A stretch of DNA of 64,000 bases. Source: Candidatus Hodarchaeota archaeon (GTDB lineage: Archaea; Asgardarchaeota; Lokiarchaeia; Sigyniarchaeales; SOKP01). Of the stretch, positions 48,358 to 50,836 are shown piece by piece. The notes beneath the pieces are model-generated. The model searched no databases. It was not told where the DNA came from and was given only the letters and a program-made list of their open reading frames with translations. Every line of letters begins with the position of its first letter. Within the stretch, counting starts at the first letter, position 1. The DNA is taken from contig JBHLKM010000001.1 of the NCBI GenBank assembly GCA_048886685.1, forward strand, positions 320,001-384,000. Reading direction: 5' to 3'. A program made the position numbers and the translations under genes.

Positions 48358-48648
48358 AATTTAATATCAATAGAGCTTAGTTGATAAATAAATAAAACTT
48401 CAGTATTAATTATTTTTGCACAATACTTCTTATATTTTTAAGAGTTGCCTTAAATATTTTTAAGTTTATATAATATTAAAATTTACTTTTGAGTAGATTG
48501 TTGTTATAAAACGTAGAATTCTTGAATGGATTGCGCTTTAGAATCTCTTTTCGCATTGAAATATAAAAATAAAAATATAATAAGTAAAATTATTATTATA
48601 AATATAACAATCAATATTAATTCCTTTAAGCAATAAAGGTGGAGACTC

Positions 48649-49053
48649 ATACAATTCGGATCTGATTTAGGAATAAACCAAGAAGATATCGAGAAAATTA
48701 GTCCTCAAATTACATTTATAACTTCTAATGCAGATATAGAAGCTATAGCGCTCGTAAGTTCTGAAGGTTATCAAATAGCATTTTCAGCGTTACCCCAATA
48801 TCATGTTGATGGTGATCAATTTTGTGGACTTGCTAGTGCCTTATTAATGACTGGGAGATCAACAATTCAAACTTTATTTCAAGAGGATTTAAGTGAGGTT
48901 ATTGTAAGAGCAGAAAATGGCTATATTGTAATTACCAATGCCGGACGTTTAGTGATTGTTTGTGCTGGAACGATAATAGATACGTTGATGAAAACTGTAA
49001 AAGTTATGCGAATCGCTGCTAAAAATTTATATAAAGTATTCGAAAATAGGTAA
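48649..49053 (+). CDS. Roadblock/LAMTOR-like protein (about 134 aa); probable ATA start
   Basis: The frame is open from TAA 48634-48636. The roadblock motif DIEAIALVSSEGYQIA...FCGLASALL lies upstream of the first ATG (48847); VIVRAENGYIVI lies downstream. Confidence 0.85.
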   Translation: MQFGSDLGINQEDIEKISPQITFITSNADIEAIALVSSEGYQIAFSALPQYHVDGDQFCGLASALLMTGRSTIQTLFQEDLSEVIVRAENGYIVITNAGRLVIVCAGTIIDTLMKTVKVMRIAAKNLYKVFENR

Positions 49054-49184
49054 AACTTTTGTATTACTTTTTCTAAATAATTTAAATGAAAATACGTTTG
49101 ACATTTCTATAAATCAGATTTTCATTAATAAATAATATCAAAAGAAAATAGTTAAGTTTTTAAACTATACAATAAAATAACCAC

Positions 49185-49355
49185 TATATTAAATTTTCTA
49201 TTCAATAATCAATCATGACACTTGCTAAAAACCTTGCTTGGTGTTGGCAGTGGCCTTGGCGTTGGCGATAACGCCTTTACATTGGATAAAATTTAATTAA
49301 AACAAACTTTTTTTCATACCTTAGTTTTTACTAAGATTAAAAAGTCCTTTTTAAT
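49185..49355 (+). promoter_or_regulatory. Putative trpB2 leader/attenuator region
   Basis: TATA-like TATATTAA 49185-49192; hairpin GGCGTTG-GCGA-TAACGCC 49258-49275; T7 tract 49308-49314; hairpin CTTAGT-TTTT-ACTAAG 49320-49335; inverted repeat ATTAAAAAG-tc-CTTTTTAAT 49336-49355. Confidence 0.65.
49215..49271 (+). CDS. Putative Trp-rich leader peptide MTLAKNLAWCWQWPWRWR
   Basis: ATG...TAA ORF of 18 codons with five TGG codons, directly upstream of trpB2. Confidence 0.85.
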   Translation: MTLAKNLAWCWQWPWRWR

Positions 49356-49432
49356 TTGCATTAAACTATTGAATTCCGATATTTTAATGACACACATTTA
49401 ATGTATGAAAATAATTATATGTGGTAAATAAA

Positions 49433-50836
49433 ATGGTAGATTATTTCAAAGCACGGATTTTATTAGAACCAAATGAGGTTCCTAAGGAATGGGTAAATAT
49501 TGTGCCGGATTTGCCTGCGCCTATGACGCCTTTAGTCAACCCTATGGATGGGAAACCTGCCCCGCCTGAAATGGCTTTTGCAATTTTTCCAAAAGAATGT
49601 GTGTTGCAGGAAGTATCTCAAGAAGAAACGATACCCATCCCTAATGAGGTAAGAGAGATATTCGTAAGTACTTACAGACCAACTCCTCTTCATCGCGCTT
49701 TAAGGTTGGAAAAACAGTTAGGAATAGAAGGAGATGATATAAAAATATTCTATAAGAATGAATCCGTATCTCCTACAGGATCACATAAGCCTAATACTGC
49801 TATTGCTCAAGCATATTATGCCAAGAAGGATGGATTAGAAGAGTTAGTCACTGAAACTGGTGCTGGCCAATGGGGTTCAGGTTTAGCGTATGGATGTAAT
49901 TTATTTGATATCAAATGTACAGTTTATATGGTGAGAGCAAGTTTCTTCCAAAAACCAGGTAGAAAAATTTTGATGAGGTCGTATAATGCCGAAGTTCATG
50001 CTAGTCCTTCAAACTTAACCGAATCAGGAAAAATGTTTGTAGAAAAAGATCCAGATCACCCAGGTAGTCTAGGAATTGCGATTTCTGAAGCAGTTGAACA
50101 CAGTTTAGGCAAGGAGAAGAGTAGATATTCCTTAGGAAGCGTAGTAAATTTTGTACTACTGCATCAAACAATTGTTGGACAAGAAGCAAAGATCCAATTA
50201 GAAAAGGTAGGGATTAAAAAGCCTGATGTTGTAATTGGATGTATGGGGGGTGGATCTAACTTCGCTGGTTTAATGATTCCATTCGCTAAGGATAAATTGA
50301 ATGGAATTAGTCCAGAAATTGAAATAATAGGAGTAGAACCACGTGCATGTCCTAGCGTATGCAAAGGTGAGTATCGATGGGATTTTGGAGATACTTCAAT
50401 GAAAGGGCCAATTGTAAAAATGCACACTCTCGGTCATACCTTTATTCCAAGCCCGATTCATGCTGGTGGATTAAGGTACCATGGAATTGCTCCAATTGTT
50501 TCAATATTATACAACAATAAAGTAATGTCAGCTGTAATGCATCATCAAACTGAAATTATTGAAGCAGCATTACAATTTGCACAAGCAGAAGGAATTCTTG
50601 CTGCTCCCGAAACAGCACATGCAGTTAAGGAAGCAATCGATCAAGCTTTAAAAGCCAAGGAGGAGAAAGAAAAGAAAGTCATTCTATTTAATTTTAGCGG
50701 TCATGGATTTTTTGATTTATTAGCTTATAAAAGTTACATGACGGGTGAATTAGAAGATTACGAGTTACCGACAGAAGAAATCCAAAGAGCCTTAGCTTCC
50801 GACGAAATGCCAAAAATTGATGAGTCTCAATTCTAA
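49433..50836 (+). CDS. trpB2: Tryptophan synthase beta chain, TrpB2 type
   Basis: YRPTPLHRA, SPTGSHKPNTA (PLP Lys), TETGAGQWG, GGGSN, IHAGGLRYHG, FNFSGHG. Start is ATG 49433 or GTG 49421. Confidence 0.96.
   Translation: MVDYFKARILLEPNEVPKEWVNIVPDLPAPMTPLVNPMDGKPAPPEMAFAIFPKECVLQEVSQEETIPIPNEVREIFVSTYRPTPLHRALRLEKQLGIEGDDIKIFYKNESVSPTGSHKPNTAIAQAYYAKKDGLEELVTETGAGQWGSGLAYGCNLFDIKCTVYMVRASFFQKPGRKILMRSYNAEVHASPSNLTESGKMFVEKDPDHPGSLGIAISEAVEHSLGKEKSRYSLGSVVNFVLLHQTIVGQEAKIQLEKVGIKKPDVVIGCMGGGSNFAGLMIPFAKDKLNGISPEIEIIGVEPRACPSVCKGEYRWDFGDTSMKGPIVKMHTLGHTFIPSPIHAGGLRYHGIAPIVSILYNNKVMSAVMHHQTEIIEAALQFAQAEGILAAPETAHAVKEAIDQALKAKEEKEKKVILFNFSGHGFFDLLAYKSYMTGELEDYELPTEEIQRALASDEMPKIDESQF

Follow-up and report, generated by a model that had tools for sequence, protein, structure and literature searches.

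A candidate ribosome-read tryptophan attenuator upstream of trpB2 in an Asgard archaeon

A short open reading frame (ORF) ending in a cluster of tryptophan codons lies upstream of trpB2, which encodes a stand-alone tryptophan synthase beta, in the genome of this Asgard archaeon. The best explanation is a tryptophan attenuator that is read by the ribosome and suited to archaeal termination, a reading to which we assign a probability of roughly 0.6 without data on expression, 3' ends or ribosomes. That the ribosome senses charged tRNA-Trp through the leader is a functional inference made without ribosome data, and we consider it very likely. That conditional termination is the output, for which there are no 3'-end data, is only somewhat favoured. 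As shown by sequence comparison, the cassette evidently travels with Trp-synthesis genes, with a predicted transcription start about 25 nt before a short ORF ending in Trp codons, and this ORF appears to be under selection for translation.

The window, meaning the whole 64,000-nucleotide stretch that was analysed, contains the leader ORF (segment 1, the putative sensor) on its plus strand at 49215-49271, with the start ATG at 49215 and the stop TAA at 49269-49271. It has 18 codons, with Trp at codons 9, 11, 13, 15 and 17, just the five alternating Trp codons in nine that the earlier note on this DNA had described. Two other remarks in that note also hold. The ORF is a GC-rich island in AT-rich DNA (49% GC, against 23% in the intergenic region and 31% in the genome), and the distance to the tryptophan synthase beta gene, given as about 150-160 nt, measures 161 nt between the leader stop and the trpB2 ATG at 49433. 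Could such a cluster arise by chance? Among the 3,088 intergenic ATG-ORFs of the genome only the leader has at least three Trp in nine codons (it has five), and five in nine was never reached in 20,000 resamples of the intergenic region. The Trp cluster is not due to chance.

The leader region is bounded by trpB2 (49433-50836, plus strand), which scores above the TIGR01415 and PRK12391 cut-offs as a stand-alone tryptophan synthase beta of type 2, and by a Roadblock/LC7 gene that ends at 49053. The domain encoded by the latter gene (window 48637-49053) begins well 5' of the first ATG, GTG or TTG, and an SD-like GGTGGAG before the ATA at 48649 suggests an AUA start. TrpB2 makes Trp from indole and serine, a reaction of indole salvage. 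No trpA was found in the genome, and tblastn with the operon of a relative as query found no trpC, trpD, trpF or trpB1, only a trpE fragment (G000:C25:36113-36241; L108) and a frameshifted trpG (G000:C39:706-1288), which are remnants of a lost trp operon. Since the assembly is also rated 100% complete, TrpB2 is probably the sole route to Trp in this genome, via indole salvage. A covariance-model search of the same genome returned no second copy of the leader. Aragorn called a tRNA-Sec gene (G000:C1:221073-221165) and gave no clear call for tRNA-Trp in the genome.

The promoter element (49152-49164, plus strand) includes a TATA box, TTTTTAAA, at 49157-49164 that is conserved across relatives. 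Its TTT(T)TA core is kept in an alignment of 26 relatives and the promoter motif of the family peaks 55-61 nt 5' of the leader ATG. Given the conserved TATA box and the usual archaeal spacing, we infer a transcription start near 49187-49190. The earlier note had pointed to a TATA-like box about 25 nt before the ATG and had suggested from it that the ORF may be leaderless. The run exists (49185-49193), but the conserved element is the one about 58 nt upstream of the ATG, so the leaderless idea is probably wrong. More probably the ORF has a 5' UTR of about 25-28 nt. At the other end of the region a weak Shine-Dalgarno-like element with a conserved GGTAA precedes trpB2 (49421-49427, plus strand); the 3' end of the genome's 16S rRNA was read as evidence.

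If the leader senses Trp, a Trp-rich ORF is expected upstream of orthologous trpB2 genes, and this is what is seen. The Trp-cluster leader precedes trpB2 at all 29 of the nearest relatives' loci. At 18 further loci from the order or class level, 15 have the leader, one has a truncated version and two (family f6) have none. It is present in 33 of 40 named GTDB records and lost in seven, although these records overlap partly with the genomes of the other counts. The leader also heads nine trp operons that begin with trpD, and a pattern search found five more; the reversed pattern, as a control, had no match in 133 genomes. The search across the phylum added trpB2 leaders in families f8, f9, f21, f23 and f27, bringing the leader-bearing Asgard families to eleven. 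Three other phylum-level matches (L147, L152 and L154) were discarded because they are located inside other genes. The non-redundant set comprises 76 leaders, found before trpB2, before trp operons and before one neighbouring gene. The relatives are not independent, so the counts describe the spread of the leader and are not equivalent to a p-value.

Some leaders are unusual. Long Trp leaders of 45-80 codons (L140, L141, L150, L151, L169, L170 and the operon leaders in L057 and L059) have in common an N-terminal G-L/F-x-L/I-T motif and a sequence resembling TGGACTGG. A mini-ORF in another frame, containing one Trp codon, overlaps the latter region, and some of the long leaders have no in-frame ATG. 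Possibly these involve two-tier re-initiation or frameshifting. At two loci a gene of about 90 amino acids without a Pfam match lies between the leader and trpD (L122:741-1013 and L124:2677-2940). At two others the leader is upstream of a gene for a GNAT-methyltransferase fusion that adjoins the trp operon (L052:5319-5396 and L053:2112-2189).

Is the leader translated? An open ATG is found in the Trp frame of 71 of the 76 leaders, compared with 2 and 9 in the other two frames. A stop follows within four codons of the Trp cluster, again in 71 of 76, although this is partly a rule of selection. The earlier note had also proposed looking for cognate-codon ORFs before other amino-acid biosynthesis genes. 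Cognate leaders do exist. In this genome a leader with a run of Ile codons (L112, G000:C12; relatives L181-L194) ends 135 nt before ileS, and leaders with runs of Leu codons precede leuS (L113, G000:C9) and leuA (L114, G000:C3). The ileS leader is present at 14 of 14 close loci and uses all three Ile codons; the leuS leader is present at 20 of 20 family loci with mixed synonymous codons. No cognate leader was found in this genome before valS, metS, cysS, both tyrS genes, trpS, the other ileS or the other leuS. A Cys-rich ORF before cysK was rejected as the tail of a longer ORF. On this comparative evidence the enriched amino acid of a leader follows the gene downstream.

These observations bear on two alternatives in which the codons are not read for charged tRNA. 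Perhaps the product itself matters, either as an arrest peptide of the TnaC kind, with free L-Trp sensed inside the exit tunnel, or as a Trp-rich micropeptide with a function of its own. In keeping with this, W-Q-W-P-W is almost fixed within the family. However, leader length varies between about 11 and 65 codons, the N-termini are not conserved, the spacers between the Trp residues are lineage-specific, a frameshift after the Trp cluster is tolerated in three members (L006, L010 and L071), and the enriched residue tracks the downstream gene. The TnaC-type hallmark of residues conserved at a fixed distance from the stop is not met across lineages. The synonymous sites within the cluster are themselves frozen (CAG in 35 of 37, CCT in 33 of 37), which points to constraint at the RNA level: the codons and the RNA pairing matter, the peptide does not. 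A role for the peptide is thus very unlikely. What if the ORF is incidental, and the element is an untranslated RNA or DNA motif, either UGGC repeats recognised by a Trp-responsive protein or a T-box-like sensor of tRNA? The repeats are real, as C is the next base after 79% of the Trp codons, but pairing with the post-stop GCC explains them. The strict ATG frame bias, the unrelated sequences of the Ile and Leu leaders and the lack of a T-box match (none even at E 10) or any other Rfam match, including the Trp_leader models, leave this scarcely probable.

Another indication that the leader is regulatory comes from the distribution of TrpY. In Methanothermobacter thermautotrophicus this protein binds DNA and controls trp genes at initiation in a Trp-dependent manner (PMC6737238). 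The present genome has no TrpY_fam match, and there are no TGTACA boxes in 49054-49432. TrpY was likewise not found in leader-bearing families f1 (0/45 and 0/35), f2 (0/14) and f27 (0/14), nor in f3, f4, f7, f8, f9, f21 and f23. Conversely, it is present in f6 (2/2), f12 (44/49), f13 (5/5), f24 (6/6) and f26 (3/3), all of them families in which we saw no leader. At the leaderless loci of f6 and f26 a divergent gene beginning Met-Trp matches TrpY_fam, and TGTACA boxes occur in L042 and L166, from Asgard families with trpY divergent from trpB2. A single genome, G055 (f5), has both leader and TrpY; in 10 of the 11 leader-bearing families TrpY was not found. In f14, f18, f20 and most of f10 the loci that were read had neither leader nor TrpY; in f14 and f20 trpB2 is inside an operon. 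In f9, where this query found no TrpY, locus L142 has a pair of TGTACA boxes upstream of trpB2, while its relative L141 has the leader. The survey used a single protein as query, without correction for the tree. With that qualification, leader and TrpY appear to be nearly mutually exclusive by family. The ATG frame bias, the cognate Ile and Leu leaders and this near-exclusion, together with conservation of the ORF, support the Trp-sensing translational leader that the earlier note had inferred, although its function remains an inference.

From the end of the sensor onwards, all on the plus strand, the RNA has four parts. Hairpin H1 (49258-49275; 1:2-like) has the 7-bp stem and GCGA loop that the earlier note had drawn, spanning both the stop and the last Trp codon, but the GNRA character of the loop is not conserved across relatives. 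Its core pairs are 91-100% kept, with UA, UG and CG variants. Next is post-stop segment A (49277-49288; segment 2), with a conserved CAnnGG, which is a candidate switching strand. Without a ribosome it is predicted to pair back onto the Trp codons, and together with H1 this amounts to an expected 9 bp or so when the RNA is free. The U-rich linker (49289-49354) has tracts of U7, U5 and U5 (three U tracts are counted within 49289-49363) and is a candidate zone for termination by aCPSF1 (FttA); in this genome it is predicted to fold as an AU-rich hairpin. The T7 tract and two further inverted repeats that had been remarked on are indeed there (T7 at 49308-49314, repeats at about 49293-49354 and 49355-49399). 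The last part, hairpin H3 (49355-49399), is conserved, with invariant loop bases, a 3-nt bulge and three helices that have compensatory changes, and it is found before trpD operons too. Its role is unknown, candidates being a pause, a factor site or a terminator equivalent. In 47 aligned leaders H1, the back-pairing of segment A and H3 have 86.8% of cells paired and 35 two-sided changes, a pairing score above all 500 shuffles and all slid controls, although relatedness inflates it. No intrinsic terminator (a GC-rich hairpin plus a U run) was found downstream of the leader. The sole match is H1, a hairpin that would not survive a ribosome at the stop, and the sequence after H3 is A-rich.

How might the position of the ribosome change these structures? 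The archaeal ribosome has a footprint of 27 nt (PMC7261190). Folding was predicted with this footprint imposed at ribosome positions on the leader, and the contrast between stalled and stop states is partly inherent to the constraint. H1 is predicted to form when the RNA is free or the ribosome is stalled at the first Trp codons, and to melt once the ribosome occupies the stop or the last Trp codons. In full-length family leaders H1 alone switches, with H3, the U tract and the SD left unchanged, and mean U-tract accessibility across these leaders is the same in all ribosome states. For this genome neither equilibrium nor partial-transcript folding gave a state-dependent change downstream of segment A, and no bacterial-type terminator or antiterminator was found. 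This agrees with the earlier note, which could identify no classic antiterminator.

Switching is predicted in other leaders. The post-stop segment of the leuS, ileS and f2 trp leaders lies in a long stem with a U/C-rich loop and 10-17 bp expected, a figure that drops to 2-8 bp when a ribosome occupies the stop. In the ileS leader this is a 12-bp stem around a C/U-rich loop, and in the leuS leader a stem starting from the stop encloses the U tract. The f4 trp leaders also pair this segment far downstream, again around a U/C-rich loop, and much of the pairing is lost with a ribosome at the stop; for the GC-rich ones the predicted order is 1:2 (free), 2:3 (stalled) and 3:4 (stop) in three of four. 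Partial transcripts, cut just 3' of the H3 5' strand, are predicted to form a transient downstream pairing in 29 of 47 family leaders when stalled versus 8 of 47 at the stop. However, this genome is not among the 29. Two candidate 2:3 helices were considered. The first, between segment A and the H3 5' strand, has 13 G-C/A-U swaps at one pair, but its controls are only borderline and it does not hold up in genera further away. The second joins segment A to the H3 loop and is 85% paired, without covariation. Neither putative helix has convincing covariation. There is likewise no support for a small hairpin involving the GG of segment A.

The factor that would read such a switch is aCPSF1, a homologue of eukaryotic CPSF73/INTS11. 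Its gene is present in the genome, above cut-off. Of the family leaders 90% have at least two U4 tracts, a signal favoured by aCPSF1, the Loki enzyme included (PMC8716108). Among control windows the share is 44-55%, which reflects how common these tracts are in this AT-rich genome. The leader has both marks of an aCPSF1 terminator, at least two U4 tracts and an aCPSF1 gene in the genome. A Loki-aCPSF1 functions with U-tracts (PMC8716108), and FttA prefers U-rich RNA and contacts it from -20 to -36 behind the polymerase (PMC11616081). That contact region makes looping out of the U-rich zone a plausible block to FttA, although this is inferred, not shown.

The proposed attenuator would then work as follows. 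With charged tRNA-Trp plentiful, the ribosome would reach the stop and leave, and the post-stop segment would be covered or refolded onto the Trp codons (H1). The U-rich linker would be open to aCPSF1/FttA and transcription would end before trpB2. With tRNA-Trp uncharged, the ribosome would stall on the Trp codons and free the post-stop segment, which could then base-pair with sequence further downstream, looping out the U-rich zone. RNA polymerase would read into trpB2, and indole and serine would be salvaged to Trp. Several observations speak against this reading. Folding predicts no switch downstream of segment A in this genome and no change of mean U-tract accessibility in the family, the candidate 2:3 helices lack convincing covariation, and G055 has TrpY as well as the leader. 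Seven family members have no leader, and H3 persists with compensatory pairs in L074 despite the loss of the Trp codons. Such leader-loss variants (L074:1313-1477, L072 and L103) lack the Trp codons and keep H3 with compensatory pairs.

Other outputs are conceivable for a Trp-sensing leader. Simple re-initiation, which the earlier note had left possible, has the wrong sign for a cassette found at the head of biosynthetic operons as well. Perhaps the output is instead translation initiation of the downstream gene, with H3 and a small hairpin gating SD/30S access. These two hairpins are 10-75 nt before the downstream start, the small hairpin near that start contains the best Watson-Crick covarying column pair, and the absence of a bacterial-type terminator fits as well. 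We nevertheless consider this unlikely, without dismissing it, because predicted SD accessibility is almost equal in all ribosome states, the stop-to-start distance ranges from 47 to 436 nt and U4 tracts are enriched in leaders. Alternatively, a ribosome stalled near the 5' end might shield the mRNA from 5'-3' decay or cleavage and so raise trpB2 mRNA with no termination switch. This needs no alternative structure, which matches the null folding results, and aCPSF1 has endonuclease and 5'-3' exonuclease activities (PMC11616081). However, we give it little credence, as it leaves unexplained why the leuS, ileS, f2 and f4 leaders have a conserved post-stop pairing that disappears with a ribosome at the stop.

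How does the attenuator reading compare with known systems? Leader-peptide attenuation is regarded as bacterial, and the Asgard leaders resemble such ribosome-read amino-acid gauges. Like the E. coli trpL attenuator (Rfam Trp_leader, RF00513), the leader is a short ORF with Trp codons clustered just before the stop, upstream of Trp-synthesis genes, with a hairpin that joins the coding end to the post-stop segment and with parallel Ile and Leu leaders at cognate genes. It differs in its archaeal host, its alternating Trp codons (2-6), the lack of an Rfam match and, in this genome, the lack of a GC-rich intrinsic terminator with U tail and of a demonstrable antiterminator; the likely effector is aCPSF1 instead of intrinsic termination. 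In short, it is trpL-like in its sensor, not in an intrinsic terminator. In Rho-dependent tnaC of E. coli, a pyrimidine-rich stretch that follows the stop is open or closed to a termination factor according to where the ribosome is on the leader, and the Asgard leader would similarly gate access of a factor after the stop. However, TnaC detects free Trp by means of its nascent sequence and turns on catabolism, whereas the Asgard leader peptide is unconserved across lineages and its targets are biosynthetic. We found no published report of an archaeal leader-peptide attenuator, although literature coverage was incomplete and most subscription papers fell outside it. Termination by aCPSF1/FttA at U-tracts is known at transcript ends and inside operons, and the leader shares with it a zone rich in U4 tracts and an intact aCPSF1 gene in the genome; a ribosome-gated, amino-acid-dependent use in a 5' leader is not reported in the accessible portions of these papers (PMC8716108, PMC11616081, PMC10450193). 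The archaeal trp regulators that we found in print are the proteins TrpY and Tar (PMC6737238). The TrpY system resembles the leader in being a Trp-dependent control of trp genes in archaea, but it relies on a DNA-binding protein at initiation, and no TrpY was found in this leader-bearing genome. Whether many Asgard families have ribosome-read Trp, Leu and Ile attenuators, in which leader translation gates aCPSF1 cleavage-dependent termination and which have replaced TrpY lineage by lineage, is a proposition on which we are evenly balanced. If true, aCPSF1-gated attenuators would represent RNA-level control in place of the TrpY repressor.
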